A stretch of 64,000 bases of DNA, taken from Candidatus Krumholzibacteriia bacterium. Its GTDB lineage: Bacteria; Krumholzibacteriota; Krumholzibacteriia; WVZY01. Under the pieces are notes generated by a model that saw nothing but the letters and a program-made list of their open reading frames with translations, did no database searches and had not been told where the DNA came from. Shown piece after piece: positions 14,729-35,233 of this stretch; position 1 is the first letter of the stretch, and every line of letters begins with the position of its first letter. The translations under genes and the position numbers were made by a program. The stretch covers positions 1,319 to 65,318 of the forward strand of contig JBHHVD010000004.1 of assembly GCA_046754105.1 (NCBI GenBank), written 5' to 3'.

Positions 14729-14863
14729 GGCGGCGTCGGGGCTCCACGGGGTCGGGGTCAGCGATGAGTCGGGGTTAATCGTAAAGAATTACAATATTTG
14801 CGGGCGCTCCTCCGGCGAGGCACGAGGCCGACCCGACCCGGACGCGAACACCCGCTGCGCCCT

Positions 14864-14893
14864 ACGATAGCGGAATCGAGGCCGTGCTGTCAA
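14864..14893 (-). promoter_or_regulatory. Candidate sigma70-like promoter for the meaB-mutase-ACAD-thiolase-hbd operon
   Basis: On the minus strand: TTGACA (14893-14888), an 18-nt spacer, then TATCGT (14869-14864). Weak -10. It lies 135-165 bp upstream of the meaB ATG. Confidence 0.25.
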
Positions 14894-14981
14894 CGTCATT
14901 TTTGGCAGAAAAACTTGTTAACCGATTCTGTTACAACTAGTTACATTCCACCGACGGCAACGGGTGTGGGACTGCGTTTGG

Positions 14982-15620: not shown

Positions 15621-15800
15621 CCTCCTCCCGTCCCATCCCGTTGCCGTTTGGGTGGGTGTACAACTGGACCGCCAGGTTACCACACGGCGGTTCGCTCATC
15701 AACCGTTATTTCCACAAAGAGGGGCGCGGCCCCGCTCGGGACGCCCCGGTTGGCCGGGACGTTCGCACGCCTTCTATCCCGGAAGGTCCCGGCACGGCGT

Positions 15801-17234
15801 CTAGCGGCGCCGCCCCAGGGCCATCTTGAGCCGCTCGGCCGCTTTCTGGGGGTTCGCCTGGCCCCGCGTCTGCTTCATCACCTGGCCCACGAGAAATTTT
15901 AGCAGTTTCTCGTTGCCGGCGAGGTACTTGGCCACCTCTTGTGGATTGCCGTCGAGGACTCCACCGATGACCTCGTCGAGCGCCCCCTCGTCGCTGATTT
16001 GCTCGAGACCCCGCGAGCGGATAATATCCTCGGCGGCGGCGCCCGACTCCGACATTTCGCGAAAAATGTCCTTGGCGGTGGGCATGTTGATCTTGCCTGA
16101 TTTCACCTGGGCGATGAGCCCGGCCAGCTGCCCCGGTCGCACTCGGAACTCGGTAACGTCTATTCTCCGTTCCTTCAGCTCGCGCAGCACCTCCCCCATC
16201 ACCCAGTTGCTCGCCGCCTTGGCGTCTTCCACCTCGGACACCATCTCCTCGAAGTAGTCGGCGATCTCGCGGGCGTCGGTCAATACCTGGGCGTCGTACG
16301 GGGGCAGTTCCAGCTCCGTGACGAACCTCGCTGCGCGCGCATCCGGCAGCTCCGGCAACGCGCCACGCAAGCGCCCGATCATCGGCTCGGTTACCTCGAG
16401 GACCAGCAGATCGGGCTCCGGGAAGTAGCGGTAGTCGTGTGCCTCTTCCTTGCTGCGCATGACCTGCGATTCGCCCTTGACGCCGTCCCACAGGAGCGTT
16501 CCCTGGTCCACTTTCCTTCCGTCGTCGAGCACCCGCTGCTGCCTTTCTATCTCGAAGTGCAACGCCTGTTCGACCGCCTTGAAGGAGTTGAGGTTCTTGA
16601 CTTCGGTTCGTGTGCCGAACGACTCCGCACCTTTCTTGCGGAGTGACACGTTAACATCGCATCGCAGGCTTCCTTCCTCCATGTTGCCGTCGCAAATCTC
16701 GAGATAGCGAACGAGTGCCCGCAGTTTTTGCATGTACTCGGACGCCTCCCGGGGACTTCGGATGTCCGGTTCACTGACGATCTCGATCAGCGGCACGCCG
16801 ACGCGGTTCATGTCCACATAACTGTAGTCCTCTCCCTCCCCGTGAACCAGCTTGCCCGCGTCCTCCTCGAGGTGGATGCGGGTGATGCCGATCTTCTTTT
16901 TCCCACCGCCGATGGTGAGTTGCCCGCCCGTACACAGGGGCCTCTCGTACTGGGAAATCTGATAGTTCTTCGGGCAGTCGGGGTAGAAGTAGTTTTTCCT
17001 GGCAAAGACGCTTCGCGGCGAAATCCGGCAGCCGGTGGCCAGCCCCATCTTGACCGCGGCTTCCACCGCCTTCTCGTTGGCCACGGGCAGCGCTCCGGGG
17101 AGGCCCAGGCACACCGGGCACACCTGGGTGTTGGGCTCGCCGCCGTACGCCGCCGAGCAGGAACAGAACATCTTGCTCCGTGTCAGCAGTTGGGCGTGCA
17201 CCTCGAGACCAATGACTGACTCGTATTCAGACAA
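15801..17234 (-). CDS. gatB: Asp-tRNA(Asn)/Glu-tRNA(Gln) amidotransferase subunit B
   Basis: [15 protein letters not shown]...[13 protein letters not shown] and the GatB/YqeY C-terminus. The probable TTG start at 17234 overlaps the gatA stop by a few nt. Confidence 0.9.
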
Positions 17235-18678
17235 CGATCTTCCTCTTGAAATCGACGATTCGCTCCACACCGCGGGCCCCACGTAACACCGTGTTCTCGT
17301 GAAGCGGTTTTCCTATCAACTGCACCCCGAGCGGCAGCCCGTCCGGGGACACGCCGCTCGGCAGCGATACTGCGGGCAGGCCGGCCAGATTGACGGGGAT
17401 TGTAAAAATGTCGGAAAGGTACATCAGCAGCGGATCGGCTGCCTTCTCGCCCACCCGAAACGCGGGTGACGGCACCGTTGGCAGCATGATCAAGTCGACT
17501 TTTTCGAGCGCCTTCTCGAAGTCCTGGATGATCAGCGATCGCACCTTCTGCGCCTGCAGGTAGTACGCGTCGTAATAGCCCGCGCTGAGCACGTAGGTGC
17601 CCAGCAGGATGCGCCGTTTCACTTCTTCGCCGAAACCTTCGTCTCGCGTGCGGGTGTACATGGTGTAGACGTCGTCGTCCCGCTTTGTGCGGTGGCCGTA
17701 CCTGACACCGTCGAACCGCGCGAGGTTGGAACTCGCCTCGGCATTGGCGATAACGTAGTAGCACGCACACGCGAAGCGCGCGTTGGCGAGCGACACGTCG
17801 ACGATTTCGACCTTGTCACGTGCGAGGCGGGCGGCCAGCGCTTTGAAATTTTCCTCCACTTCCGGCTTCATGCCCATCTCGAGGAAATCCCACGGCACGC
17901 CCAGGGTTAAACCCTCGAGTCCGCGTTCGAGGCCCTCCGAAAAATCCGGCACGGGCTGCTCGAGGCTGCTGGCGTCCCGCGGGTCGCCGCCCGCGATGGC
18001 ACCGAGCAAGAGCGCGCAATCCTCGACGCTTCTCGCGAACGGCCCGATCTGGTCGAGCGAGCTGGCGAACGCGATCAGACCGTAGCGCGACACCCGACCG
18101 TATGTCGGTTTCATACCGACAATCCCGCAGAAGCTCGCCGGCTGGCGGATCGAACCGCCGGTGTCGCTGCCCAATGCAGCCACCGCCATTTCCGCGGCGA
18201 CCGCTGCGGCGGACCCTCCGCTGGAGCCGCCGGGAGTGTAGTCGAGGTTCCACGGGTTGCGGCTCGGTCCAAACGCCGAGTTCTCTGTCGAAGACCCCAT
18301 GGCGAACTCGTCGAGATTGGTCTTGCCGCAGATGAGGGCCCCGTTCTTTACCAGGTTCTCGGCGGCCGTCGCGTCGTACGGGCTCTTGTAACGCCCGAGA
18401 ATTCGGGAGCCTGCGGTGGCCACGCGGCCCTCGAGACAGATGTTGTCTTTGACGGCGACGGGCAAACCGGCGAGCCGTGACGACCGATACCGTCCGCTTT
18501 CCGTCAGCGTCCTGGCCTTGGCGAGCATGTCGTCCGCGTAGAACTCCAGGTAGGCGTGGACATCCCCGTCGCGGCGCTCGACGGCACTGGCTACGTCTAT
18601 GGCCACGTCGAGCGGAGAGATATCGCCCTTCTTGAGGAGCGCGGCCAGTTCGACGAGGCCTCGGGAGTTGAGTCCCAT
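17227..18678 (-). CDS. gatA: Glutamyl-tRNA(Gln) amidotransferase subunit A
   Basis: Amidase signature [33 protein letters not shown]; 483 aa. Confidence 0.9.
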
Positions 18679-21422: not shown

Positions 21423-24400
21423 TTAGAAGCTCGGGCCGAGGAAGAAATGAAACTGACTGGCCCCGACCGACCGAAGGTCGGTTTGCCAGGCCAGTTGAAA
21501 GTTGAGCAGGAAGAACCCGAAATAGAAATGGGTTCCGAACCCGAAGTCCCCCCTGAGGTCTTCGAATTGCAGGCCGTTGACGTCCTTCTTGAACACCCTG
21601 ATGTCACTCCCGTCCCACGCCGCACCCACGTCGAAAAACGCGGATCCGCCGATGTTGCCGAACCCCCACCGCCCGGGAAAACCGATTATCAACTCATCGA
21701 TCAGCGGAAAACGATACTCGATGCTCGCAAGTCCCAGCCGCGACCCCTCGAATTCGAGGTAATCGAAACCGCGCAACGTCGACGGACCGCCCAGGAAGAA
21801 CGACCGCGGGTCATCCCCCTCGCTGCCCGCGAACGTGGCTCGGAACGCCAGCGAGTTGCGGTACCACAGTTTGAAATACTTGCGGTAATCGATAAAGACG
21901 GTACCCCTCGACACCGCGTTGTTCCCGATTCCGAACCCTTTGGACGCGCTGATGTAGTAGCGTGATCCGTCGATTGGGCCGTACGGCCCGTAGAAGGACG
22001 CGTCATGGACAAAGGACAGCGAAGGCTCGATGAGATTTCGGGTGGACTTACCCGTTTCCTCGAAAGTCAACAGGTCCTCTTCCGTCCGGACTTCGTCGAA
22101 GAACTCCCGGTCGGACACGAACGCCTGCAGCTCGAAGTCCAGACGGTCGAACGTGTTGAACGGGTAGCTGGCCAGCCCGAAGACGCCGTAGTTCCGCTCC
22201 GAGAACAGCTGGTAGTCCTGGAACGACTCGCCGATCGATGTCACCCGGCTGTTGAGAAAATTCTTGAACTGAAAGATACCGGCGCCATAGTTGATGCGAT
22301 GTTTGAGGTAGAAATACTGCGCGAGCAGGTCCGAGTCCTCGATCGTCCTGAACAAATTGAACGAAAAGACCATGCGGTGGTTGCCGAGCATGTCGCTGAG
22401 CGCAATCGTGTTGGCGAGCCCGAAACCGAAGCCGGTCGAGTAATAGAGGCCGCCGCCCTGGCCGATAAAATCCGGCGCGAGCTTGAGCTTGTAGCCCGAA
22501 ACCGACCCGCCCCTCGTCGCCGGCTCGTCGCCCGCGATCGGCCGCTGGACGCCCTCGAGCTGCGCGCCGGCAGGACTACCTTCCTTCGCGTCGCTCAGCA
22601 GCTTTGCCTTGGACTCGTCTATGATTGTTGCGTCCGGGATACGGAGCGTGATTCCGAGCTTTTCCAACGAATCCTCGTCCGCCACCGAGAAAACGTCATC
22701 CTCGCTTTCATCCACCGATCGGACCCGTACCGCCGGCCGCTCGTGCTCCTCTGCCTCGGCGCGGCGCAGGAGCGTTCCCGCCGGGATGTCCGGTCCCCGC
22801 GGACCCTCGCGCAGCAGTGCGGTCTGTTCCGACCTGCGGGTGGCGAGCGCGGGGCTAATGTCCGACCCGTAGTTCTTGTTCAGCAGCGCTTCCAGTTCGT
22901 CCGACACGTAGATATCCCAGCCGTTCTTCGAGAACGCCGAGAACGCAATACGGTTTTTCGAATCGACCACGTCGGGAGTGAAAACGCCCCCGAGCACGTC
23001 GGTGAATCGATGGTACTCGCCTGTTTCCAGGTCGGCGACGTAGAGGTTTCGGATTCCGGAAGCGTCCGACGTAAACACCATCCGGCGACCCTCGTCGAAG
23101 ACCATGGGGCTGCTATCATCGCCGCTGGTCTCGATGAGAGGCCTGCTCGATGCGGTCCCCAGGTCCATTTCGTAAATATCCAGTGTGCCCCCGTGTTTGA
23201 CGTTGTCGGTGGCGAGGAAATCCATCTCGCTCAGCGTGCGCCTGCCTTCAGCTGAAAGATCGGCCGGGACCGGCGCTGTAACTTGTGGATAGTACTCGAA
23301 CGCGATGCGCTTGCCGTCTGGGAAGAAACGGGGGTTGAGCTGGTCGGCAAAATCGTTCGTCAAGCGCCGGTACTCTCCACTCTCGCAGTCGACCAGCATG
23401 AGGTCCGTCTGGCCGCCGAATACCGCGCTAACCACGATGACGTCCCCCTTCGGAGACCAGGTGGGCGAGGCAAGACCGTCCGCACCGAGGTCGAGCTTCT
23501 TGCGCACCTTGCCCTTTTTCGTATCAACGATGAACAACTGCGAGCGCCCGTCGGACTTGGCGACGAACGTGAGCTCCTTGCCATCGGGCTTGAAGGACAT
23601 ACTGCTGGTGAAAAAATGCAGCGACTCGAACTGGTTCGACTTGTGACCGGTCACGAGCTTTTTGATGATCTTGCCGTCGACCGCTGACATGAGGTAGATC
23701 GATATCAATTCTCGGCTCGAGAAGAAGGCGATCGTCTCGCCGTCCGGCGACAGCACCGGCTTGGTGTTGTAGGCCGCGCGCTCCTTCACATGGTTGGTCA
23801 GACGGCGCCCGATTTCCGGCGCCTCGTGCTTGTCGGCGTACAACGGCCAGTAGTGTTTGCGCTGGGCCTTCTGCCATTTCCTGGTCAACTCGGTTGTCGA
23901 CAACCCGATCGTCTTCTCGAGCGCCGCGTCCGCGTTGCGCGTGATGGCCAGCGCGTCGAGGATCTCCAGCACTTTTTCCTTGCCGTAGGTCTGATCGATG
24001 TAGTTCCACGCCGATTGCCCCTGCTTGTACACGGCGAAGCCCCCGGCCCGGCTCAGGTCGCCAAGGTAATTGTGAATTACCCCGTCGCGCACGTACATGT
24101 CGGTTTCCGGGTCCCACCCGACGGCCAGGTACTCGGCGACGCCTTCCATCACCCACAGCGGCAGACCAAAGAGCGACGTGCGAGAGAAAACGTTGTCTAG
24201 CAACCGGCTATAGATGATCTGGAACGTAAACACGTGGGCGAGCTCGTGGATCGCCGTGTGAGCGAACTGCGGGTACGAGCCGGTGAAGGGCAGCACGATC
24301 CGCTTGCGCGAAGGCTCGGCAAACGCCTGCACACCTTCCGAGAGACTCTCCAGCGACACGTTGGTCTGCAGGAAATCGTTGTGGGACCCGTAGAGGATTA

Positions 24401-24659
24401 CGGGCACCTTCCACGGCAGCGTCTCGTGCAGCTTCCCGGAGAGCATGCGGTAGCCGTCCTCGAGTACCAGGCCCGCACGCACGGCAAACGCGTCGGACCC
24501 GTCGTAGAAGTGGATCTCGAAGTGCGGCGTGCTCAGCACGTGCCAGTTGTGGTTCTTGTACTGGATCTTGTTGCGGCCGAACTGGGCGGCGGCGGGCCCG
24601 GCCAGGGCGGATAAGAGAAAAAGAGAGGCGATAACCAATACTGTTGTTTTACGGGACAA
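21423..24659 (-). CDS. Outer-membrane fusion protein: signal peptide, peptidase-MA-like (HEXXH...E) domain, TolB-like beta-propeller repeats, C-terminal Omp85/BamA-type beta-barrel
   Basis: 1078 aa. Signal MSRKTTVLVIASLFLLSALAGPAAAQ. HELAHVFTFQ...WVMEGVAEY is a gluzincin-like HEXXH + E. Repeated PDG/PKG propeller motifs: SPDGETIAFFS, KPDGKELTFVAKSDGRSQLFIV, SPKGDVIVVSA, FPDGKRIAFEY. The C-terminus TLRGFDYLEFEGSRLGLASIEYRFPL...FFDVGAAW...FHFFLGPSF matches the Omp85 barrel terminus. Confidence 0.8.
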   Translation of the reverse strand: MSRKTTVLVIASLFLLSALAGPAAAQFGRNKIQYKNHNWHVLSTPHFEIHFYDGSDAFAVRAGLVLEDGYRMLSGKLHETLPWKVPVILYGSHNDFLQTNVSLESLSEGVQAFAEPSRKRIVLPFTGSYPQFAHTAIHELAHVFTFQIIYSRLLDNVFSRTSLFGLPLWVMEGVAEYLAVGWDPETDMYVRDGVIHNYLGDLSRAGGFAVYKQGQSAWNYIDQTYGKEKVLEILDALAITRNADAALEKTIGLSTTELTRKWQKAQRKHYWPLYADKHEAPEIGRRLTNHVKERAAYNTKPVLSPDGETIAFFSSRELISIYLMSAVDGKIIKKLVTGHKSNQFESLHFFTSSMSFKPDGKELTFVAKSDGRSQLFIVDTKKGKVRKKLDLGADGLASPTWSPKGDVIVVSAVFGGQTDLMLVDCESGEYRRLTNDFADQLNPRFFPDGKRIAFEYYPQVTAPVPADLSAEGRRTLSEMDFLATDNVKHGGTLDIYEMDLGTASSRPLIETSGDDSSPMVFDEGRRMVFTSDASGIRNLYVADLETGEYHRFTDVLGGVFTPDVVDSKNRIAFSAFSKNGWDIYVSDELEALLNKNYGSDISPALATRRSEQTALLREGPRGPDIPAGTLLRRAEAEEHERPAVRVRSVDESEDDVFSVADEDSLEKLGITLRIPDATIIDESKAKLLSDAKEGSPAGAQLEGVQRPIAGDEPATRGGSVSGYKLKLAPDFIGQGGGLYYSTGFGFGLANTIALSDMLGNHRMVFSFNLFRTIEDSDLLAQYFYLKHRINYGAGIFQFKNFLNSRVTSIGESFQDYQLFSERNYGVFGLASYPFNTFDRLDFELQAFVSDREFFDEVRTEEDLLTFEETGKSTRNLIEPSLSFVHDASFYGPYGPIDGSRYYISASKGFGIGNNAVSRGTVFIDYRKYFKLWYRNSLAFRATFAGSEGDDPRSFFLGGPSTLRGFDYLEFEGSRLGLASIEYRFPLIDELIIGFPGRWGFGNIGGSAFFDVGAAWDGSDIRVFKKDVNGLQFEDLRGDFGFGTHFYFGFFLLNFQLAWQTDLRSVGASQFHFFLGPSF

Positions 24660-24768
24660 TTCGTCTCCCTCGGGTGGCGGTTAAGAGCTAGCGTCACAAA
24701 ACGGTACGCGCTCCCCCATCCCTACTAAAATAGGGTCCCCGCCGCCTCCGCTCAAGCAGAATAAGCGG

Positions 24769-27700
24769 TTAGTACTCCAGCCGGAACTTGATGTCGAAAT
24801 TGATTTCGTCTGCGGTCTGGCGGCTCTTGCCGGTTATACCGCGGCTGGAGTGCCGGATGATCTCCGAGCGCAGGAGGAACATATTGCTGATTCGGTACTC
24901 GATATCCACCTCCCGTTCCGTGGTATACGTAATCCCTTGTCGATACTTTAGATACACATCCTCGGAAAGGTAGCGCCCAAAGGCGATGCTCATCTCGCGC
25001 TCCCCGTTGCCGCCGAGGGTCCCTCTGTGCCGCGTTCGGGTTTCCACGTCGACGGTCATGTCCTGCATCTGGGCGTTGAGGATGCGCTCGAGGTAGTTCG
25101 ACGCGAGATTCTGGGCCGCTCCCCCGGCGTCAAACGCGGAGCCCGGCATCAGACCCGCATCACCGGCGACGACCTGGCCGCCGAGCATTTTCCACAGGTC
25201 GGACTGGCTGTAACCGGGAGCGTCGTAGCTGAGGGCGATCACCGGCTCGCGCTTGTCCCACTCCCAGACCAGGTTGAGAAAGATCCGGCGCTCCTCCTGG
25301 CCCGCTCGCCGGTGTGGCGTATACGCGTTGAGCCGAATATCCGGGCGCAGAGTCGTCGCCTTGGAAAAATCGATTCGACCATCCGTTATCTGAAAGGTGT
25401 TGTTGTAGAGAGTGTAGGCGCCCCGGAGCACGCTGAGGTCACCCCGAAAATAAAATCCCCGCTCGTCCCGCCGCATGATCAGCTCGCCGCCGAGTTCCAT
25501 ATCCAGGTCGGCGTTCCTCAACCGCACGTTCTTCGGCGCGTCGATACTCATGTTGCAAAGCCACGACGGTGAATCCGTCGCCATGGTCGCCTGATTCGGC
25601 GGTCCTTCCTGAACGCCCAGTTCCATCGTAACCAGCGCTTGTTTGACCGCTATCGAACCCGTTATCGACGGTACGACACGCCCCGCCGTGTTTCGCTGTG
25701 AGTCGATCATCAGCTTGCCGTCCTGCGTTGAGACGACGTCCGGTATCGACGATATCGTAACGTCCCTGAGGAACACGTCGAGATGGTAGCTCTCGAGGCC
25801 GAAGCCGCGGAGTTGTGAGGTCCCCGAGCCGCTGAAGCGGCCCTTCTTGCCGGTGGCGCCGGTAATCTTCACCAGCCTGAGATTCGTGTCGCGGAGCTCA
25901 AACGCGGCCTCCACGTCGCGGTATACCTCGTCCATGCCCGCCAGCCGAAGTCCGCCCTCGTTGAGTTCGAGATTCCCCGTGTAGGTCGGACTCGCGAGGA
26001 TTCCTCGGATGGCGAGTTCGCCCTGCATTCTTCCGCGCGATGCCGCTATGGCCTCGAAATAGCCCGGCACGCGGGACAGGTCCTCAGACGCAACCCGGAT
26101 CGCCACGTCTACGGGACCGTCGTCCCGCCACTCAAAACCGCTCCCGATACCGATTGCGACCGGCACCGTCCCCTGCGCCCGCGCTCGCGTGGCGCCGTCA
26201 TCGACATCCACAGAGCGAATCGTCAACACCTTGTTCTCGTATTGCAGATCGGTACGGATCGGGGGCAATTGTCGCCGGTCGCCGGGTTGTGACACCAGGG
26301 TGCCGCGGGAGATGATCACCGGCGCGCCCAATGTGTTCGTCACGGTCATCGTGCCGTCGAAAGCTCCCTCCCAGTATCGCGGCAGATGCAGGGCCTTGAA
26401 CAACGCCGGCAGCGGGTACCGGCTGCTCGCAGCCTCGGCCTTTACCTGCGCCCCGGCCGCCGCCGACATGGGGAATCCCCGGCGCACCATCTTGACCGGC
26501 GACTCGGGCAGCGCCCACGTGCCCGAAATCAGGAGTGAATCGGGACCGTCCCGTAGCCGCAAACCGTTGACCCTGTATCCCCGCGACGGTTCGTAATCGG
26601 CCCGCACATCGAGGTACGCGAAGACCAGGCTGTCGATCGATCCGTCTCTGATCTCGAGCGACAGGTCCGACGTCGGGTCGTTGAGATCTCCCGTCGCGGT
26701 GGCCTCGAATCTCGCCGTGCCTCTTAATTCGATCGGCAGGTCGAACGCCCGCCGCAACAGAGCAAGATCGAGATTCTCGCCCCAGCCGCGCAGATCGCAC
26801 GTCTCGCTGTCCACCGAGTAGCTGCCGACGATACCCAACGAGTGCCCGTTCGACTGTAAGACCAGCGAGTCGATCGCGGTCGAATTGTCCGTTACCGTCA
26901 TGATCGTGGGCAATTCGTTCTTCCAGTTCGAATGAGGCATATTCACGACGAGGTGCTGGATGAGGATTTTTTGTTCTTCCTCGCCGGGTACAACGTCGAA
27001 ACTCGTCGTAACAAAGGTGTCCCCAGTGGCAAAACTGAAGTCACGAACTCTGACCTTGCCGACGGTCCCTTCGAGCAGCACGTGCGGGTCCTCGAACTCC
27101 TTCCCCTTCAGCATCAGCCCCGAGCCTTTCACGTCCACCGTCGCCAGGATGTCCTCGCCGCCGACGTTCCTGGCGTCCGCGTGAACGCTGCTGCTATCGA
27201 TCGTACCCCACAGGTAGGACAAATCCCGCCAGCCGCCGTTGAGATTGAGTTGAAAACGGTCCAACGGGCCCTGCAGCCGCCCGGACAGTTCCGCCGAGCC
27301 CCCAATCGGCGGCAGCTCGATGTAGTCCAGGAGGTAGCCGAAGTCGTCACCCTTGAGGTCGAGGATGAGATCCGCGGTGCCGGCGGGGTCGATGGTGCCG
27401 GACCCCGACAGCTCGAACCCCGGGCGGCTTAGTTGAAATGACCGGATCCGCAGGCCGATCGCGTCGCGCCAGTTCAGGCGACACTGAATCGCGTCTCCTT
27501 CGAAACCCAACACCGACGAGCGTCTCAAATCGGCCTGCACCTCGTACGCCTTTTGCGGGGCGAGATAATCTAGCTTGACGAACCCGTTCAAGTCCGTTTC
27601 GGGCACGCCCTCATCCTTGATGAATCCTTCGGTGATGTCGAGACTCTCGCACACGCCGCTGAACGAGTAGCCGCCATCCGCTCGCCGGTAGCGAAAATCA

Positions 27701-28695
27701 CCGTTGAGCCGGCTGCCGAAGATCGTCCCCTGTAGCTCGGAGAAATAGACCTCCTCGGGCGAGAGCAGCCCCTCAAACGTCAAGCCGCTGAACACCAGGC
27801 CCAGCCCCTTGCCCGCCAGGCTGCCGCGAAGGGAGAGTGAATCAGGCGGTCCTTCTACGATGACGTTGCCCCCGACTTCGCCCTTCTCGCCCTGAATCAC
27901 ACCCAGCGCCGACAACTCGGCGAGGTCGAGCGGGTTGAACACACCCTGGACGTGGTGAAGCCTGCCCTCGTCGTATCGGCCGCTCAACACGGCGACGGTT
28001 CGGTCCAGCCGTACCTCCAGACCGCTGAACGCGACGCCATCCCCGCCGTACGTAGCCTTCATCTTCAAGGAGCTCACCGGGACTTGTGTTCCGCCGACGA
28101 CCGCCGAGCCGTTATCGATCGACAACTGCCCCTCGCCCTCCACGAGCCGGAACTGCCCCTCGAGGTTCACACGCTCGAGGGTATGAGCGACGTCCGTGCG
28201 CTCCACGCGCAGCTGAAGATCCGTAACGGAGAACCGATCGATCTCTACATGGGGCGTGGCGCTTTCGGAAGACGGGTTGGCGCCGTTCGGAGGGCTCGGC
28301 AGCAGGGGCCGCCCGTCGCTGCCCTCGAGTATCGTGAGACGAGGTTGCTCGATCTCCAGGTTGCTGACCAGCATCTTGAGCTTCAACACCTGGACGAGGT
28401 TATAGTCCAGACTGATGCGCCTGGCCCGGAACACCTCGAAGGGCCGGCCCTTGCCCTGGTAGCGAAGCACCGGCCTGGCAAGAGAAACGTGCCCCACCAG
28501 ATCGCCCGATATGCGACCACAGGAGAACCGGAATGGCGTCCCGCGCAAGTAATGGTCGTTTACATACTTGCTCAGGCGGTACGAGAGAAGCTCGCTCTTC
28601 TGAAAGACCCCGACGGCGATGACAACCGTCACGACGACGGCGACCACGAGCGAGAACACTCTGTGTATCTTTATGACGCGCTTCTTGCCAACCAT
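24769..28695 (-). CDS. tamB: Translocation and assembly module subunit TamB (AsmA-like, DUF490 C-terminus)
   Basis: 1308 aa with a single N-terminal TM anchor (LVVAVVVTVVIAVGVF), a long beta-rich body, and a C-terminus ...DIEYRISNMFLLRSEIIRHS...INFDIKFRLEY typical of TamB. Immediately downstream of tamA. Confidence 0.85.
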   Translation of the reverse strand: MVGKKRVIKIHRVFSLVVAVVVTVVIAVGVFQKSELLSYRLSKYVNDHYLRGTPFRFSCGRISGDLVGHVSLARPVLRYQGKGRPFEVFRARRISLDYNLVQVLKLKMLVSNLEIEQPRLTILEGSDGRPLLPSPPNGANPSSESATPHVEIDRFSVTDLQLRVERTDVAHTLERVNLEGQFRLVEGEGQLSIDNGSAVVGGTQVPVSSLKMKATYGGDGVAFSGLEVRLDRTVAVLSGRYDEGRLHHVQGVFNPLDLAELSALGVIQGEKGEVGGNVIVEGPPDSLSLRGSLAGKGLGLVFSGLTFEGLLSPEEVYFSELQGTIFGSRLNGDFRYRRADGGYSFSGVCESLDITEGFIKDEGVPETDLNGFVKLDYLAPQKAYEVQADLRRSSVLGFEGDAIQCRLNWRDAIGLRIRSFQLSRPGFELSGSGTIDPAGTADLILDLKGDDFGYLLDYIELPPIGGSAELSGRLQGPLDRFQLNLNGGWRDLSYLWGTIDSSSVHADARNVGGEDILATVDVKGSGLMLKGKEFEDPHVLLEGTVGKVRVRDFSFATGDTFVTTSFDVVPGEEEQKILIQHLVVNMPHSNWKNELPTIMTVTDNSTAIDSLVLQSNGHSLGIVGSYSVDSETCDLRGWGENLDLALLRRAFDLPIELRGTARFEATATGDLNDPTSDLSLEIRDGSIDSLVFAYLDVRADYEPSRGYRVNGLRLRDGPDSLLISGTWALPESPVKMVRRGFPMSAAAGAQVKAEAASSRYPLPALFKALHLPRYWEGAFDGTMTVTNTLGAPVIISRGTLVSQPGDRRQLPPIRTDLQYENKVLTIRSVDVDDGATRARAQGTVPVAIGIGSGFEWRDDGPVDVAIRVASEDLSRVPGYFEAIAASRGRMQGELAIRGILASPTYTGNLELNEGGLRLAGMDEVYRDVEAAFELRDTNLRLVKITGATGKKGRFSGSGTSQLRGFGLESYHLDVFLRDVTISSIPDVVSTQDGKLMIDSQRNTAGRVVPSITGSIAVKQALVTMELGVQEGPPNQATMATDSPSWLCNMSIDAPKNVRLRNADLDMELGGELIMRRDERGFYFRGDLSVLRGAYTLYNNTFQITDGRIDFSKATTLRPDIRLNAYTPHRRAGQEERRIFLNLVWEWDKREPVIALSYDAPGYSQSDLWKMLGGQVVAGDAGLMPGSAFDAGGAAQNLASNYLERILNAQMQDMTVDVETRTRHRGTLGGNGEREMSIAFGRYLSEDVYLKYRQGITYTTEREVDIEYRISNMFLLRSEIIRHSSRGITGKSRQTADEINFDIKFRLEY

Positions 28696-28703
28696 ATTGT
28701 GCC

Positions 28704-30686
28704 TTAGAAGATTTGCCCCAGACTCACGTGAAAACGAGCATTATCCAGGCCAGCCTCGCGCTTGAGCGGCACCCCGTAGTCCAGCCGGATGGGGCCGACC
28801 GGCGTGTTGTATCGTATGCCCACGCCAACGCTGTACCGGTAATCCTCTTGCACCACGTCTGCCCGGTCCGCGAAGGGCCTGAAGTGTTTGAGATCGATGC
28901 TCCCCAGGCTCTCCCACACGTTGCCGGCATCCACGAACGCCGCCCCGGAAAAGCGGAATCGTGCAAGCAGCGGCAGCGGAAACCGCAATTCTGCGTTCGT
29001 GAGCAGCAGCACCCGGCCACCCAGCACAGTCTTCTGGACCACGCCCGGGCTCGTGGTGAGGGTGTCGGTGGGCCCGAGACTGTTCTCGTCGTATCCTCGT
29101 ACCGAGTTGCTGCCGCCGCTAAAGAAACGCGCCTCGACCGGAACTGCGGCCGACGAGCCGAAGCGGTCCGCGAATCCGGCCCGCGCTCTGAACGCTACGA
29201 TAACGCGGCCACCCAGACGATAGTATTTCTGCACCGAGCCGCTGACACTGAAGTAGTCGTTATCGGCCCCGAGGATCCCGCCTGCGACCTCGAAGTTGAG
29301 GTCCCTGAACACTCCGCTCTTGGGGTCCAGGATAAAATCACGCGTGTCGTACCGTATCGTCGACGAAATCAAGTTCGACCTCGAGACCACCAGGCTGTCC
29401 ACACCCGTCTGACTCTTGATTCGCTGCAGGGAAAACTGGAGCGACGCCAGAGTCCGCGGGTTCAGCCGCCGGCTGCCGCCGACTGTTGCGCCGCGTGTTC
29501 GAACCACGATGTCATCCACCGTCGCGTCCTTTTCGAGAAACGTGTTGACCCCCAGGAGTACCTTGGATCCAAGAAGACGACGCTGATTGAATTGCGCGTC
29601 GTACCGGTAGAACTTCACCCGAAAATCAAGGTTGTTGAAATCGAGCGTCGCATCCTCGAAGATCCCGAATGAATACTCCGTCTTGAGGCGAAGCTCGCGC
29701 CCGGTACCAAACAGGTTGCGCTCTCCCCATTCCCCCAGGACACGGCTGCCGAGGATGTTGCCCACACCGAAACCGGCCTCCACGTAGGCCGACTTCCGCT
29801 CGCTGACCCTCACTACGATGTCCACGGTTCGCTCTTCCGGGTTCAAGTTTTCCGGAATGACCTCCACCTCTGTAAACAGCCCTGTCTCGAAAAGGTTGCG
29901 TTGGGTCTCGATCACTTTGCCGAGGCGAAAACGGTCTCCGCTCCGGAACGCCAGCTCCTTTTCCACCACGGAGCGATTCGTATTACTGTTGCCTTTGATG
30001 GCGATGTCACGGATGTCAAAGACCGGGCCTGCTACCACCTCGTACCGAATGCGCACTTTGCGGTTGTCAACCACGACGGAGTCCCGAACTACAACCCCCA
30101 GGTAACCCTCCTCAAAATAATTTCGCTTGATCGAGTACACGTCCACGCTCAACAGCGAAGGGTTGTATGGATCCCCCGGCGCGAGTACCAGGTCCTTTTT
30201 CAATCGGCCTTCCTCAATCGAGCCTGCGGTTTCGACCTCTATCGCGTCGACCCGCGTGGCCTCTCGTTCCACGACTTCGATGATGATGTCGACAAAAGCA
30301 TCGTTCTCGAGCTTCTTGATTTCCTTGAGCGTCACCGTCGCCTCGAGAAAGCCGTTGGCATGATAGAACGCTTCCATTACGGATATGTCACGCCGCAGAA
30401 CGTCCGTGCGCTGTCTTGGTTTTTTGAACACGGAAAAAAACGACGATTCGTCCGTATTCATTTGCTTTTTCAATTCATGGTCGGAAAAAGACTGATTGCC
30501 CGTTATGATGATCTTGTTGATAAACGGCTGACGCGTGCTGTCCTCCGGCTCGAGAGGCTGCGCCCCGACCCGCGTCCCGAGCGGCGCGGCCAAAACCAGC
30601 ATTGCCAGCAGGCGAACGCATCGGGTAGGATCGAAGCATCGGTGCGCGCCGTGGTTCCTTCTCGTAAAATGCCGATTTACAGCCAT
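28704..30686 (-). CDS. tamA: Omp85-family protein with 3 POTRA domains + beta-barrel (TamA-like; occupies the bamA syntenic position after rseP)
   Basis: 660 aa with three POTRA-like repeats and then a barrel ending ...RLDYGVPLKREAGLDNARFHVSLGQIF. The start is uncertain: 30686 ATG or the internal ATG at 30602. Confidence 0.8.
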   Translation of the reverse strand: MAVNRHFTRRNHGAHRCFDPTRCVRLLAMLVLAAPLGTRVGAQPLEPEDSTRQPFINKIIITGNQSFSDHELKKQMNTDESSFFSVFKKPRQRTDVLRRDISVMEAFYHANGFLEATVTLKEIKKLENDAFVDIIIEVVEREATRVDAIEVETAGSIEEGRLKKDLVLAPGDPYNPSLLSVDVYSIKRNYFEEGYLGVVVRDSVVVDNRKVRIRYEVVAGPVFDIRDIAIKGNSNTNRSVVEKELAFRSGDRFRLGKVIETQRNLFETGLFTEVEVIPENLNPEERTVDIVVRVSERKSAYVEAGFGVGNILGSRVLGEWGERNLFGTGRELRLKTEYSFGIFEDATLDFNNLDFRVKFYRYDAQFNQRRLLGSKVLLGVNTFLEKDATVDDIVVRTRGATVGGSRRLNPRTLASLQFSLQRIKSQTGVDSLVVSRSNLISSTIRYDTRDFILDPKSGVFRDLNFEVAGGILGADNDYFSVSGSVQKYYRLGGRVIVAFRARAGFADRFGSSAAVPVEARFFSGGSNSVRGYDENSLGPTDTLTTSPGVVQKTVLGGRVLLLTNAELRFPLPLLARFRFSGAAFVDAGNVWESLGSIDLKHFRPFADRADVVQEDYRYSVGVGIRYNTPVGPIRLDYGVPLKREAGLDNARFHVSLGQIF

Positions 30687-31050
30687 GAAGTCGAATAAAA
30701 CCGTCTTATTAATGCAGTGGTGGCGTCGCCCTGGTCTGCCGTTCGCGATCGGCCTGGTCGTCCTCTGCTCATCCTACTGTACGACCCCGGACACTCAAAC
30801 CACGATTGCACAGCTTTCCGCCGACGAGGCGTACCTCGTCGATACCTACGTTCACGTCGCCGAGGCCCGGGACGCGCACTTCATAAGTCCTTTAAAATCA
30901 GATAGTTTGTTCGCAGCGCTCGATTCTACGATAGATACGCTCCGCATTGCAAACACGATCCGCGGCCTGAACCAGGACCCGGACAGGTGGGTTCTGGTGT
31001 TTCGGAGTATCGAGAGTCGCTTGAAGACCCCGTCCCAGGGGGCCGATTAG
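30685..31050 (+). CDS. Questionable small ORF (121 aa, lipoprotein-like N-terminus) filling the rseP-tamA spacer
   Basis: ATG 30685; MKSNKTVLLMQWWRRPGLPFAIGLVVLCSSYC. It overlaps the tamA start codon and contains an AT-rich core (30880-30960) that looks non-coding, so it may be spurious. Confidence 0.2.
   Translation: MKSNKTVLLMQWWRRPGLPFAIGLVVLCSSYCTTPDTQTTIAQLSADEAYLVDTYVHVAEARDAHFISPLKSDSLFAALDSTIDTLRIANTIRGLNQDPDRWVLVFRSIESRLKTPSQGAD
30923..30952 (-). promoter_or_regulatory. Candidate sigma70-like promoter for tamA-tamB(-omp85 fusion)
   Basis: Minus strand: TTGCAA (30952-30947), 18 nt, TAGAAT (30928-30923), inside the only AT-rich patch of the 360-bp rseP-tamA spacer. Confidence 0.3.
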
Positions 31051-32437: not shown

Positions 32438-33592
32438 TTAGAGGCCGAACTTTTCTCTAATGTACGCCCGCGTCCTCCCGTCCGTTTCGAAAACGTCGTC
32501 AAAACAGCGAATCCGCCCTTGTGGAACATGGTCCATGGCGGCCTCGATAATAGTATAAATCTCTGAAAAACGCACATTCTTTGCAAGAAAAGCGCCAACG
32601 GCCACCTCGTTCGCTGAATTCAAGACCGCCGGCATGTTGCCGCCCTTGCGCGCGGCGCGCAGCACCAGGTCCAGGCACGGGTAACGCTCCACGTCCACTT
32701 CGCCAAAGCTCAGATCCGGGAAATCCGCGATCCGGCTCTTGGGTAGCGGGGTGTCGACCTTTTCCGGGTAGGTCAGCGCGTACAGGATCGGCATGCGCAT
32801 GTCCGGAATCCCCATCTGGGCCAGAATCGAGTTGTCCTTGAACTCCACCAGGGAATGGACGATTGACTGTGGATGAATCACGACTCGTATCTTGTCGAGC
32901 GGCAGATCGAAGAGCCAGTGTGCCTCGATGACCTCGAGCCCCTTGTTCACGAGCGTGGCGCTGTCGACCGTGATCTTGTTTCCCATGTCCCAGGTGGGGT
33001 GTGCGAGCACGTCTTCTGGTGCCGCGTCCGCCATCGTCTCGAGCGGCCGATCCCGGAGGGCACCGCCGGAAGCCGTGATGTAAACCGTGGAGACGTCGTC
33101 TATGGTAGAGCCGCACAAGCACTGGCTGATGGCGACGTGTTCGCTGTCTATGGGAATAACCTCGGCACCGGATTGCCGTGACGCCTCGCGGATCAGCTCC
33201 CCACCGGTAACGATTGCTTCCTTGTTGGCGATGGCCACCGGTGTCCCCCGCTGCAAGGACGCCAGAGTCGGTTCGAGCCCGGCGAAACCTACCAGGCAGT
33301 TGACCACCAGGTCCGGTTCGGTCTCCTCGATGAGGTTTATCAAGCCGGATCTGCCCTCGCCCGTGCTGCGCGCATTCATTTCGGGAATCGATGACACGCG
33401 CGCGGAGGCTTCCGGCATGCAAACGGCGACTCTCGCATCCGCGTAGCGCGAGCACTGTTGCTCCAGGACTTCGATATTGCGGTTCGTAGACAGCCCGACG
33501 ACGGCGAAACGCCCCGCGTGATGAGCGACTACCTCGAGTACGTTGCGGCCGACCGACCCGGTCGATCCCAGCACCAGGATTCGCTTTTTCAT
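32438..33592 (-). CDS. dxr: 1-deoxy-D-xylulose 5-phosphate reductoisomerase
   Basis: MKKRILVLGSTGSVGRNVLEV...PIDSEHVAISQCL. The true ATG is at 33592; the longer track ORF is upstream read-through in a high-GC frame. Confidence 0.9.
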   Translation of the reverse strand: MKKRILVLGSTGSVGRNVLEVVAHHAGRFAVVGLSTNRNIEVLEQQCSRYADARVAVCMPEASARVSSIPEMNARSTGEGRSGLINLIEETEPDLVVNCLVGFAGLEPTLASLQRGTPVAIANKEAIVTGGELIREASRQSGAEVIPIDSEHVAISQCLCGSTIDDVSTVYITASGGALRDRPLETMADAAPEDVLAHPTWDMGNKITVDSATLVNKGLEVIEAHWLFDLPLDKIRVVIHPQSIVHSLVEFKDNSILAQMGIPDMRMPILYALTYPEKVDTPLPKSRIADFPDLSFGEVDVERYPCLDLVLRAARKGGNMPAVLNSANEVAVGAFLAKNVRFSEIYTIIEAAMDHVPQGRIRCFDDVFETDGRTRAYIREKFGL

Positions 33593-33612
33593 GGTATCTT
33601 CCAGACCGTGTC

Positions 33613-34482
33613 CTAGTTGAATACGACGAACTTGATAAAGTAGTAAATCATCGGCGCGGTAAACAGCAGGCTGTCGAATCGATCCAGCACGCCGCCGTGC
33701 CCGGGGATGGTATCCGAAGCGTCCTTTATCTCGACGTCTCTCTTCATGAGGGACTCGACGAGGTCGCCCAGCAGCCCGATCACGCCTGCCAAAAGCCCCA
33801 GTAGGAGCGCGTGCCACAGCTGCAGGTACCCGGCGAGCGTCGCTCGAGCCACTAGCGCGGCCGCCACCGAAAACACCAAACCGCCGATGGCGCCTTCGCG
33901 TGTCTTCTTCGCCGAAATTCGCGGCATCAGCGGATGCTTGCCCACGGCAGACCCGACCAGGTACGCCCCCGTGTCGCCGGCCCACGTCACGATGAAGGCC
34001 AGAAAGACGAAGGAGCCGCCGTAGCTGTAGTCGAGGTTCACGCTCAGCGGCAGTTCTCGCAGCAGCACTACGTGGGACAACAAAAACGCGACGTAGATTA
34101 CCCCCAGGATAGTCGTGGCAATATGGTAGACGGCCATCCGCGTTTCCCTGCGCGTCAGCTCCAGGCACATCAGGGTCACCAGGGCCACCGTCAAGAAGAG
34201 ATTGGAGTACATGCCGTTTCGGAAGAACACGTACCAGGAAAGAGCGAGGCCACAGATGATTCCGATGAGCTTGTACGGCCGGATCCCTTTTGACTCCATC
34301 ATCCGGTAGAATTCCCACATCCCGACGAAGATGATGGCGTTCATGAGGGTGAGAAAATGGTAGCCACCCGCATTGGTGATGATGATAAAGCACGGGATGA
34401 AAACCAGCGACGCGGCCACCCTCCAGAGTATCGACGAGTGAACCACGAATCTGCGGGGTGCCGTATGACCGTTTTGTTCCAT
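33613..34482 (-). CDS. cdsA: Phosphatidate cytidylyltransferase
   Basis: Polytopic membrane protein with the C-terminal CTP_transf_1 signature ...SDTIPGHGGVLDRFDSLLF. The start is MEQNGH at 34482. Confidence 0.85.
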   Translation of the reverse strand: MEQNGHTAPRRFVVHSSILWRVAASLVFIPCFIIITNAGGYHFLTLMNAIIFVGMWEFYRMMESKGIRPYKLIGIICGLALSWYVFFRNGMYSNLFLTVALVTLMCLELTRRETRMAVYHIATTILGVIYVAFLLSHVVLLRELPLSVNLDYSYGGSFVFLAFIVTWAGDTGAYLVGSAVGKHPLMPRISAKKTREGAIGGLVFSVAAALVARATLAGYLQLWHALLLGLLAGVIGLLGDLVESLMKRDVEIKDASDTIPGHGGVLDRFDSLLFTAPMIYYFIKFVVFN

Positions 34483-34492
34483 CACTGGCTCT

Positions 34493-35233
34493 CTACAGAC
34501 CGAACCTGCGTTCGCGCTTCTGGTATGCCGCGATGCTCGCGAACAGCTCCTCTTCCCTGAAGTCGGGCCATAGCACGTCGGTGACAAACAGCTCGGTGTA
34601 GGCCACCTGCCACAGAAGAAAATTGGAAATCCGCTGTTCGCCGCTGGTGCGTACCAGAAGATCCGGGTCCGGAAGCTGCGGATCGTACAGATGCTGTCTG
34701 AGCAGCTCATCGTCTATGTCCGCGACCTCGATCCCGCCGCTCTTGACCCTTTCTGCGATCCGCCGGGTCGCATCGACGATCTCCGCCCGTCCACTGTAAC
34801 TAACGGCCAACGTCAAGACCAGCCGCGAATTGTCTTTGAGCTTGTCGATGGTCTCGTCGAGGGCCGCCCGGGTCGTCGCGGGCAGCATGTCCGTGCGGCC
34901 GATCATTTGCAGGCGCACACCGTTTTCGTCGAGTTCGAGGTATTCCTTCTTCAGCACCTCCTCGAGAAAGAGCATTAACCCTCGCACCTCATCGGAGGGG
35001 CGCTGCCAGTTCTCGAGAGAAAACGTATAGAGGGTGAGGTAGGAGATGCCGATGCGGGCACAGGTTCTGACGACGGTTCGCACCGATTCGCGCCCGACGC
35101 GGTGTCCTTCCAGGCGGGGTAGTCTACGCTTGCTCGCCCACCGCCCGTTGCCATCCATGATGATCGCGATGTGGGACGGGAGATTCTCTGAGTTCTTGAG
35201 CTTTTCTATTTGCTGTTCGATTTCATTCAACAT
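34493..35233 (-). CDS. uppS: Isoprenyl transferase (undecaprenyl diphosphate synthase)
   Basis: HIAIIMDGNGRWA...LTLYTFSLENWQRP is the UPP synthase signature. Confidence 0.9.
   Translation of the reverse strand: MLNEIEQQIEKLKNSENLPSHIAIIMDGNGRWASKRRLPRLEGHRVGRESVRTVVRTCARIGISYLTLYTFSLENWQRPSDEVRGLMLFLEEVLKKEYLELDENGVRLQMIGRTDMLPATTRAALDETIDKLKDNSRLVLTLAVSYSGRAEIVDATRRIAERVKSGGIEVADIDDELLRQHLYDPQLPDPDLLVRTSGEQRISNFLLWQVAYTELFVTDVLWPDFREEELFASIAAYQKRERRFGL

Follow-up and report, generated by a model that had tools for sequence, protein, structure and literature searches.

We identify the 1078-residue product of a gene in a 64,000-nucleotide stretch of Candidatus Krumholzibacteriia DNA (the window, meaning the whole stretch analysed) as a further member of the WD40-like Omp85 subfamily. 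We consider it probable, at roughly 60%, that the protein acts as an outer-membrane-tethered periplasmic peptidase, with envelope-protein processing or quality control as its likeliest substrate class. The open reading frame is a genuine, vertically conserved gene; it is preceded by a Shine-Dalgarno-like sequence (GAGGGAG), and its product is identical to the NCBI entry [quoted passage not shown]. A sequence-only reading had divided the protein into a signal peptide, a gluzincin domain, a TolB-like propeller and an Omp85 barrel without POTRA domains. Profiles and predicted structure agree with this anatomy, and every motif then quoted is present in the translation (HELAH, MEGVAEY, RGFDYLEFEGSRLGLASIEYRFPL, FDVGAAW and the C-terminus FHFFLGPSF).

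The same reading had taken the architecture for an unusual variant. This view has to be given up, because the build was catalogued in 2014, when the WD40-like Omp85 subfamily was defined (Heinz and Lithgow 2014, Front Microbiol 5:370; PMC4104836), and the protein is therefore of a known kind. Table S3 of that work gives Phyre2 matches to BamA barrel, TolB and aminopeptidase/collagenase for about 95 members, while its main text treats only the WD40 part; a later paper restates the subfamily as having "WD40 and peptidase domains" (PMC11358297). The family is common, with 3,865 clusters at 50% identity (E ≤ 1e-30), and we found homologues in Ignavibacteriales, Calditrichia and Zixibacteria, overlapping the published taxa. 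Several paralogues per genome appear in the published list, four in Rhodothermus for example (PMC4104836), a multiplicity that speaks for a general enzyme more than for a core subunit of a machine. Functionally, papers from 2024 still call the subfamily uncharacterised, and we found no experiments on any of its members in the literature.

Table 1. Features of the locus, with positions in the window
Feature	Residues	Position	Strand	Basis or detail
Omp85 gene, three POTRA domains and barrel		28704..30686	(-)	660 aa; Pfam, profiles, gene position
tamB-like gene		24769..28695	(-)	1308 aa; PF04357
Promoter-like element TTGAGC-N17-TATTTT		24727..24755	(-)	layout conservation; starts 13 nt past tamB stop codon
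Peptidase-propeller-Omp85 gene	1-1078	21423..24659	(-)	1078 aa, TTG start
Putative signal peptide (LSRKTTVLVIASLFLLSALAGPAAA, then QFGRN)	1-25	24585..24659	(-)	sequence reading; model helix 2-18
FGRNK motif, mature N-terminus	27-31	24567..24581	(-)	alignment conservation
Gluzincin-type zinc metallopeptidase domain	33-295	23775..24563	(-)	
HELAH, HExxH zinc-binding/catalytic motif	138-142	24234..24248	(-)	invariance in alignments
MEGVAEY	171-177	24129..24149	(-)	alignments, regular-expression survey
Six-bladed TolB/PD40-like beta-propeller	296-595	22875..23774	(-)	profiles, Foldseek, model
Linker	596-718	22506..22874	(-)	model pLDDT, alignments, no POTRA match
Omp85-type beta-barrel	719-1078	21426..22505	(-)	profile against PDB, Foldseek, model
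LRGF, counterpart of loop-6 (V/I)RG(F/Y)	962-965	21765..21776	(-)	alignments
FFDVG, FxDxG motif pairing with loop 6	1008-1012	21624..21638	(-)	alignments

Peptidase, propeller and barrel

Peptidase and barrel are assigned from family profiles and the predicted structure (AlphaFold2 model of the whole protein: pLDDT 79, pTM 0.72), single-sequence Pfam searches being marginal: with Peptidase_MA_2 the protein reaches 32.2 bits, just under the cut-off of 32.4. Conservation was read from two alignments, one of 47 close sequences (A1) and one of 36 distant sequences at 27-42% identity (A3). In both, H138, E139 and H142 of the HELAH motif are invariant, as are W169, E172, G173 and E176, of which E172 is predicted to be the third zinc ligand, in a W-x-x-E-G setting that recalls the family M1 motif WLNEGFA. 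By regular expression, HExxH followed by E[GA]xxE[YFW] was matched in 252 of 260 full-length members, and the domain is, judging from its motifs, probably catalytically active. Ahead of it, the N-terminus has the look of a Sec type I signal peptide, without a lipobox and with a putative cleavage site after residue 25. The FGRNK motif of the mature N-terminus is strongly conserved among members 27-42% identical (G28 and N30 invariant, F27 and K31 nearly so), in a region of low confidence in the predicted structure.

The propeller is the part most readily recognised by profiles (PD40 E = 2e-19; TolB TIGR02800 E = 3e-36, under the model cut-off, with 125 against 343 bits for the TolB equivalog), and it matches TolB structures by profile (E = 4e-21) and Foldseek (E = 3e-12). 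Counting blades from the strand list of the model, we find that blade 4 holds an insertion (helix 470-478). The linker that follows consists of one helix (603-617) and then about 100 acidic, disordered residues, and is poorly conserved in both alignments. Residues 612-712, where POTRA domains would sit, have a pLDDT below 50; Pfam gave no POTRA match on the protein, and the linker model contains no POTRA fold.

For the barrel, which the model predicts to be 16-stranded, the BamA model TIGR03303 matches only at E = 2e-4 (residues 785-1058; 19.7 bits against a cut-off of 297), and PF01103 gives no match at E ≤ 0.1 on the single sequence; the latter matches 21 of 36 diverse family members. The family profile, searched against the PDB, finds BamA of F. 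nucleatum (9ccg, E = 2.9e-10) and BamA 9pxj/9pxg (3e-4), while Foldseek aligns BamA structures 9ccg, 8bo2, 8bnz and 8pzu over about 400-438 columns. The C-terminal 150 residues also align with those of the neighbouring Omp85 protein. Within LRGF, which we take to be the loop-6 motif as established for BamA, TamA and FhaC, G964 is invariant and R963 nearly so in both alignments. The FxDxG motif occurs in 241 of 260 members; its F1008, D1010 and G1012 do not vary in A1 and hardly vary in A3, and the barrel ends with an aromatic C-terminus and an invariant glycine at position -4, as in BamA.

A conserved gene neighbourhood

The three co-oriented minus-strand reading frames lie where the sequence-only reading had placed them; its 109-nt gap before the 1078-residue gene is correct, whereas the Omp85-to-tamB gap measures 8 nt, not 9 bp. 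Its description of the first gene as tamA was right as to three POTRA domains and an Omp85 barrel and wrong as to identity. The 660-residue protein is BamA-like by profile: it clears the BamA equivalog cut-off (323.5 against 297 bits), is nearer to solved BamA than TamA structures (1.6e-30 against 1.5e-16), and its gene directly follows uppS-cdsA-dxr-rseP, the classical bamA position. Scores for TamA (123.5 against 625 bits) and TamL (134 against 400) fall far under their cut-offs. The true start of this gene may lie downstream of 30686. Next to it, the tamB-like gene encodes an N-terminal hydrophobic anchor (VFSLVVAVVVTVVIAVGVF) and a C-terminal TamB/DUF490 domain (PF04357, 104 bits over residues 944-1308).

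The position of the 1078-residue gene after an Omp85-TamB pair, to which the earlier reading had drawn attention, proved strongly conserved within its own clade. The order rseP, BamA-like gene, tamB, peptidase-propeller gene and pcrA is found at nearly all testable loci of Krumholzibacteriota, Latescibacterota and Fibrobacterota, with Omp85 in 41 of 43 testable loci (both exceptions being scaffold gaps) and TamB in at least 65 of 69 (three of the four misses being filter artefacts). Outside the clade, seven more distantly related members of the family lack this link: locus L085 has rseP, the peptidase-propeller gene and pcrA without the Omp85-tamB pair, and the six others have no adjacent TamB. 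The link is thus conserved only in the protein's own clade, and neither the paper that defined the subfamily (PMC4104836) nor the TAM evolution paper mentions it.

Spacing adds detail to this picture. The median gap is 13 nt between Omp85 and tamB, about 101 nt between tamB and the peptidase-propeller gene, and 48 nt between the latter and the downstream pcrA helicase gene, which overlaps it by 4 nt in seven loci and is often the nearer neighbour; in Fibrobacteraceae, the tamB-to-gene spacer is only 20-70 nt. No terminator-like hairpin was seen in the spacer between tamB and the gene. The same spacer carries a conserved promoter-like element, a candidate promoter by its sequence, whose layout recurs in 31 of 70 homologous spacers compared with 5.0 ± 2.1 (maximum 11) in shuffles. 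The unrelated pcrA is linked no less tightly, so the order of the genes tells us little about substrates; a three-gene functional unit with the BamA-like and tamB genes is not established.

Proposed function and its alternatives

In the reading we favour, Sec would export the protein and the C-terminal 16-stranded barrel would insert in the outer membrane, leaving the N-terminal module, in which an active zinc metallopeptidase would lie packed against the six-bladed propeller, to hang in the periplasm on its disordered tether of about 100 residues. Barrel anchor and periplasmic module together would make an outer-membrane-tethered periplasmic peptidase. The propeller may recruit or filter substrates, which the gluzincin site would then cleave. 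The periplasmic location is suggested by analogy with PlpD, and the tether could also allow surface exposure. As to substrates, the clade's fixed BamA-like/TamB neighbourhood would point to envelope-protein processing, and a quality-control role like that of BepA is plausible.

The neighbourhood also invites the proposal that the protein belongs to a BamA-like/TamB machine as a dedicated third subunit, its barrel docking with TamB or the BamA-like protein, its tethered protease processing or destroying the machine's substrates, and the three genes being co-transcribed. Gene order held across three phyla, to 34-41% identity in Fibrobacteraceae, the short spacers there, the missing hairpin and the barrel's retention of gate-related signatures known from Omp85 proteins of the assembly type are consistent with this, as is a 1483-residue TamB_N/DUF748 protein encoded two genes upstream in an Ignavibacteriales relative. 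We nevertheless consider it unlikely, given the promoter-like element that, in the clade of the window, follows the stop codon of tamB directly, the wider gap on that side, and the distant members without the pair (L085) or without an adjacent TamB (the six others); moreover, the closeness and overlaps of pcrA indicate that the whole housekeeping region is collinear.

Further still from our expectation is a self-exporting surface protease that would feed on external proteins, the barrel translocating its own peptidase-propeller passenger across the outer membrane by way of the long linker, a mechanism at one time suggested for PlpD. The disordered linker is predicted to be long enough to thread the barrel, many paralogues occur in protein-degrading Bacteroidetes, and the option has been raised for enzyme-bearing Omp85 proteins (PMC4104836), but the sole tested precedent, PlpD, proved periplasmic (PMC11116518), a 16-stranded barrel would hardly be expected to carry a folded, propeller-containing module of about 570 residues across, and the housekeeping envelope gene context does not suggest nutrition. 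Marginally less probable again would be a non-catalytic scaffold, in which a fused BamB/TolB-like propeller and a peptidase fold turned binding domain organise outer-membrane complexes or link the outer membrane to peptidoglycan and Pal-like partners. The propeller is indeed nearest TolB, whose propeller binds Pal, one distant member adjoins an OmpA-family gene, and a BamA-BamB fusion has been proposed (PMC4104836). Against this, the TolB equivalog models fail, and HExxH, the downstream glutamate ligand and neighbouring residues are invariant to 27% identity and recur in nearly all members, a pattern to be expected only where selection acts on catalysis.

Comparison with known systems

Judged by domain build and taxa, with published members compared by description, the protein resembles the WD40-like Omp85 subfamily in its BamA/TamA-type barrel, TolB-like PD40 propeller and aminopeptidase/collagenase-like gluzincin domain, in lacking POTRA domains, and in phyla that include Ignavibacteria and Caldithrix/Calditrichia; the published set, however, predates Krumholzibacteriota and Latescibacterota genomes. 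With BamA and TamA it shares the 16-stranded barrel predicted by the model, loop-6 RGF, FxDxG, the glycine at -4 and the aromatic C-terminus, but it carries an enzyme module instead of POTRA domains and falls far short of the BamA equivalog. [quoted passage not shown] PlpD, however, has a lipase domain, one POTRA domain and forms homodimers, whereas the present protein combines a metallopeptidase with a propeller and a long disordered linker.

BepA (YfgC), a zinc protease of family M48 that carries a TPR domain, works in the periplasm at the BAM complex. It likewise joins an HExxH metalloprotease to a protein-interaction domain and serves as functional analogue for the quality-control reading, with no homology claimed: BepA is soluble, whereas our protein is barrel-anchored, with an M1/M9-like gluzincin domain and a propeller in place of M48 and TPR. 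TolB of the Tol-Pal system, also with a six-bladed PD40 propeller, is what residues ~296-595 match best in both structure and profile; here, in contrast, the N-terminal domain of TolB is missing and the propeller forms part of a membrane protein. Finally, a PD40-type propeller joined to a peptidase is known from tricorn protease and the prolyl-oligopeptidase/DPP-IV enzymes, and homologues carry precomputed Tricorn_N and Tricorn_2nd matches, with DPPIV_N in 34 of 36 members. Those enzymes are soluble serine peptidases, whereas here a zinc gluzincin domain lies N-terminal to the propeller, which may recruit or filter substrates as theirs do.

Architecture and family membership

The 1078-aa protein, whose exact sequence is recorded as hypothetical in a Candidatus Krumholzibacteriia MAG, joins a secretion signal, a gluzincin domain, a TolB-like propeller and an Omp85 barrel. 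This four-part anatomy had been read from the sequence alone, and Pfam, NCBIfam, AlphaFold2 and Foldseek agree on it. All motifs quoted in that sequence-only reading were found in the translation, and the three co-oriented ORFs it described exist, all on the minus strand; of the gaps it gave between them, 109 nt is correct and 9 nt should be 8 nt. A pseudogene or fused-ORF artefact was rejected: hundreds of clusters contain a full-length homologue, 920-1190 aa long.

Features of the 1078-aa protein and its upstream neighbours
Feature	Position	Strand	Basis or remark
Omp85-type gene, 660 aa	28704-30686	-	ORF
tamB-like gene, 1308 aa	24769-28695	-	ORF
Promoter-like TTGAGC-N17-TATTTT	24727-24755	-	in the 109-nt spacer; begins 13 nt past the tamB stop
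Peptidase-propeller-barrel gene, 1078 aa	21423-24659	-	ORF; TTG start preceded by GAGGGAG
Signal helix	N-terminus of the 1078-aa protein		AlphaFold2 model
Alpha/beta-plus-helical domain	residues 33-295		AlphaFold2 model
Six-bladed propeller	residues 296-595		AlphaFold2 model
Helix, then ~100 acidic disordered residues	disorder 612-712		AlphaFold2 model
All-beta barrel, ~16 long strands	residues 719-1076		AlphaFold2 model

At the level of sequence models, Pfam detected PD40 repeats (E=2e-19), and Peptidase_MA_2 (PF13485) scored 32.2 bits against a gathering cut-off of 32.4. The propeller gave TolB-type NCBIfam matches well under their equivalog cut-offs; TIGR02800 reached 125 against 343 and aligned over the propeller part alone, the N-terminal domain of the Tol-Pal protein TolB being absent. 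PF01103 (Omp85) gave no Pfam match at E<=0.1 on the protein itself; a precomputed PF01103 match is listed for most close homologues, and the BamA model TIGR03303 matched residues 785-1058 weakly (E=2e-4). The AlphaFold2 model was built from 47 homologues (pLDDT 79, pTM 0.72). Foldseek matched its barrel to the BamA structures 9ccg, 8bo2, 8bnz and 8pzu (E ~1e-10, 401-438 columns), and the family profile matched 9ccg at 2.9e-10. The C-terminal region is thereby predicted to be a 16-stranded membrane beta-barrel of BamA/TamA type, a member of the Omp85 superfamily. No peptidase was found when the N-terminal domain was searched against the PDB by sequence profile; its peptidase resemblance was recovered by structure comparison only, in the form of the thermolysin-like catalytic fold of the gluzincins (clan MA). 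POTRA domains, reported as absent from the sequence alone, are indeed lacking: Pfam gave no match, and the disordered segment contains no predicted beta-alpha-alpha-beta-beta unit. The protein thus does not have the POTRA domains of classical BamA, TamA and TpsB.

When 1.84 billion representatives were searched with a profile, 3,865 clusters passed E<=1e-30; each of the top 150 reached 550 bits or more, and their lengths are mostly 920-1190 aa. In 36 diverse members PD40 was always found (36/36), Peptidase_MA_2 in 31/36 (E<=1e-3) and PF01103 in 21/36 (best 5e-19). Named relatives belong to Latescibacterota, Chitinivibrionia, Fibrobacteraceae, Ignavibacteriales, Calditrichia and Zixibacteria; the last three hold full-length homologues at 30-35% identity and overlap with the taxa in Table S3 of Heinz and Lithgow (2014, PMC4104836). 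The WD40-like Omp85 subfamily of that study has a TolB-like PD40 propeller ahead of the Omp85 barrel and, from the Phyre2 hits in Table S3, an N-terminal aminopeptidase- or collagenase-like (gluzincin) domain, both of which are present here. We place the 1078-aa protein in this subfamily by architecture and overlapping taxa, its sequence link to the listed members being indirect. POTRA domains are also missing from the WD40-like, metallo and noNterm Omp85 subfamilies (PMC4104836).

What had been taken for an unusual variant is therefore a catalogued, widespread architecture, which makes the finding ordinary in kind. The family is common and catalogued, but it is not functionally characterised. 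Specialists named the WD40-like/peptidase Omp85 subfamily as an uncharacterised target as late as 2024, and our literature searches found no functional study of Omp85/TolB-propeller/metallopeptidase proteins. Searches pairing Omp85 with PD40 or Peptidase_MA_2 gave no match, those combining Omp85, TamB and Fibrobacter gave none of relevance, and an envelope proteome paper on F. succinogenes has one OMP85/BamA entry and nothing on the WD40-like/peptidase family.

Conserved residues of the peptidase and the barrel

HELAH (138-142) and E172 are predicted to form the gluzincin motif, HExxH with a third zinc-ligand Glu. In 47 close homologues at 43-87% identity, H138, E139, H142, E172, G173, E176 and Y177 are invariant; in 36 distant members at 27-42% identity, the invariant residues are H138, E139, H142, W169, E172, G173 and E176. 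A motif survey found HExxH followed by E[GA]xxE[YFW] in 252 of 260 full-length members.

In Omp85 proteins, the loop-6 motif (V/I)RG(F/Y) has its partner in FxDxG on the barrel wall. The counterpart of the former is LRGF (962-965), with G964 invariant and R963 invariant or nearly so, and FxDxG is represented by FFDVG (1008-1012), in which F1008, D1010 and G1012 are invariant or nearly so in both alignments. The barrel also keeps an aromatic C-terminal residue. Its last four residues are GPSF (21426-21437, minus strand), of which Gly1075, four residues from the C-terminus, is invariant among the close homologues; the 660-aa Omp85 protein ends in GQIF. E. coli BamA has Gly807 (IGKTW) at this C-terminal offset too. 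In BamA, this residue allows a kink in strand beta-16, and the shared offset suggests that beta-16 of the 1078-aa protein may likewise be able to kink and its lateral gate to work.

At the mature N-terminus, a further motif, FGxNK (residues 27-31; 24567-24581, minus strand), is invariant or nearly so down to 27% identity. Along this stretch, where model confidence is low, the chain may serve as a docking peptide or insert into the active site.

Genomic neighbourhood and transcription

On the minus strand, the genes run rpsB, tsf, pyrH, uppS, cdsA, dxr, rseP, a three-POTRA Omp85, tamB, the 1078-aa gene, pcrA/uvrD, gatA and gatB, which is the classical bamA neighbourhood. Within it, the mechanical dxr ORF (32438-34393, minus strand, 651 aa) has Dxr domains starting at residue 272 and a 5' part that overlaps the cdsA ORF (33613-34710); it is over-extended, and its true start probably lies near 33580.

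The 660-aa Omp85 protein had been labelled TamA, a name against which several results speak. It passes the BamA equivalog TIGR03303 (323.5 bits, cut-off 297), fails the TamA equivalog NF047950 (123.5 against 625) and TamL NF052279 (134 against 400), lacks a lipobox and occupies the rseP-bamA slot; against solved structures, BamA (1.6e-30) is matched better than TamA (1.5e-16). It has three POTRA domains only, aligning with E. coli POTRA3-5, rather than the five of BamA, and for this reason may be a BamA paralogue in a TamA role. Its neighbour of 1308 aa is a TamB by C-terminal domain (PF04357, TamB/DUF490; 104 bits, cut-off 22.4), hydrophobic N-terminal anchor and length above 1000 aa; it does not reach the proteobacterial equivalog NF047952 (37 against 825). 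BamA-TamB operons outside Proteobacteria have been described as ancestral (PMC4494059).

Between rseP and the 660-aa gene lies a small opposite-strand gene of ~121 aa (30685-31050, plus strand), found at the same site in 33 loci (tblastn, E down to 3e-32). It has a lipoprotein-like signal (LVVLC) and no family match in Pfam or NCBIfam, and its product could serve the Omp85/TamB pair as an accessory lipoprotein. The gene interrupts co-transcription of rseP and Omp85. As it begins right next to the annotated Omp85 ATG, translation of the 660-aa protein probably starts further downstream.

Elsewhere in the window, two methylmalonyl-CoA mutase large-subunit paralogues (6223-7896, plus strand; 12099-13763, minus strand) enclose genes for a 3-hydroxyacyl-CoA dehydrogenase, a thiolase and an acyl-CoA dehydrogenase (8299-11627). 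A respiratory cluster (42001-51359, minus strand) encodes a 951-aa molybdopterin-oxidoreductase/4Fe-4S protein like ActB of alternative complex III, heme O synthase (UbiA), cytochrome c oxidase subunit II (with fused cytochrome c), subunit I and a 439-aa ORF without Pfam match.

Gene order was compared across GTDB species representatives (134 relatives, 78 loci fetched), counting loci with enough flank. tamB lies directly upstream of the family gene in at least 65 of 69 loci, and the Omp85 gene precedes tamB in 41/43; rseP is upstream in 36/38 and pcrA downstream in 60/62. The order is kept down to 34-41% identity, in Fibrobacteraceae, and also in a representative at 42%. Across three related phyla, the gene has a fixed place in the classical bamA neighbourhood, directly after the BamA-like/TamB pair. 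Two loci seemingly without Omp85, L005 (CP070677.1) and L066 (CP070631.1), were rejected as exceptions: runs of 100 N (7138-7237 and 7259-7358, respectively) immediately upstream of a truncated tamB mark scaffold gaps, and their 541-aa TamB is a product of assembly rather than a naturally short form. Three of four loci scored as without TamB were filter artefacts, the query barrel having cross-matched the upstream Omp85.

In one lineage the gene fills the bamA slot itself. There (L085; JGI 3300033143, Ga0366829_1000023, 1-18333), a 1194-aa member stands in the order rpsB-tsf-pyrH-frr-uppS-cdsA-dxr-rseP, family gene, pcrA-gatCAB, with no Omp85-tamB pair. Six other distant members have unrelated contexts, with one partial exception in Ignavibacteriales (L087; JAPLFH010000006.1, 2362-12204), where a 1483-aa TamB_N/DUF748 (AsmA-family) protein is encoded two genes upstream, separated from the distant family member by RNase R; this may be a linkage remnant or chance.

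Does this conserved order amount to a functional unit of Omp85, tamB and the 1078-aa gene, as had been proposed? The order stands, and no terminator-like hairpin was found in the tamB spacer, as such a unit would have it. Against it, the median gap is 13 nt between Omp85 and tamB but ~101 nt between tamB and the 1078-aa-type gene, and the spacer contains a promoter-like element. Its layout, TTGnnn-N17/18-TAnnnT, often with a perfect TATAAT, recurs in 31 of 70 homologous spacers, where shuffles gave 5.0 +/- 2.1; these spacers cluster in the window's clade, whose members share at least 50% identity with the 1078-aa protein. The element emerged from comparative alignment only; a generic promoter and terminator scan of 18.5-32.8 kb stayed at chance level, and Rfam gave no match within the window. 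To judge by this spacer alignment, the 1078-aa-type gene probably has its own promoter in these phyla. Further, pcrA is equally collinear, following at a median of 48 nt with a 4-nt overlap in seven loci; with an unrelated helicase gene so close, the whole region is simply collinear. Together with the lineage that has no Omp85-tamB pair and the distant members placed elsewhere, the Ignavibacteriales locus being a partial exception, this weakens the case for a functional unit.

A possible role at the outer membrane

The analysis establishes a secreted protein that combines a gluzincin site, intact and strongly conserved, with a TolB-like propeller; a long, flexible tether leads to the Omp85 barrel, which bears functional signatures. 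Its barrel would sit in the outer membrane. The orientation of Omp85 N-termini is known. From this, and from PlpD, which has its enzyme domain in the periplasm only (PMC11116518), the peptidase-propeller module is expected in the periplasm. The same precedent and the size of the folded module disfavour a self-exported surface protease. A fused-BamB scaffold, a published idea, is unlikely as well: the catalytic zinc-peptidase residues are invariant, under strict selection throughout the family. The propeller would choose substrates or control their access, by analogy with tricorn and prolyl-oligopeptidase-type enzymes; cleavage would act on unfolded polypeptides close to the outer membrane.

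A role like that of BepA, in envelope quality control or processing, would fit the genomic setting of the clade; we give it a probability of about 0.2-0.25. A more specific version is more doubtful still, namely that in Krumholzibacteriota, Latescibacterota and Fibrobacterota the protein is a built-in quality-control arm of the BamA-like/TamB machine. With the gate signatures that it keeps, the barrel could catch beta-barrel or TamB-dependent substrates at the membrane when they stall or misassemble; their destruction would then fall to the zinc peptidase, tethered and gated by the propeller.

The WD40-like/peptidase Omp85 proteins form a large subfamily, with thousands of sequence clusters in many diderm phyla, and the architecture found in this window is not new. 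What this analysis adds are three usable facts, namely selection on catalytic residues, lock-in to the bamA neighbourhood in three phyla and a probable own promoter. Together they offer, for a family without known function, a concrete lead open to testing, an envelope protease with an outer-membrane tether; cultured Fibrobacter and Chitinivibrio relatives were identified as settings for it. The sequence-only observation is confirmed and its interpretation partly supported; the clade-specific, well-conserved association is worth a specialist note. If true, a quality-control arm would be the first function assigned to the WD40-like Omp85 subfamily, and would amount to a BepA-like activity joined to an Omp85 scaffold.
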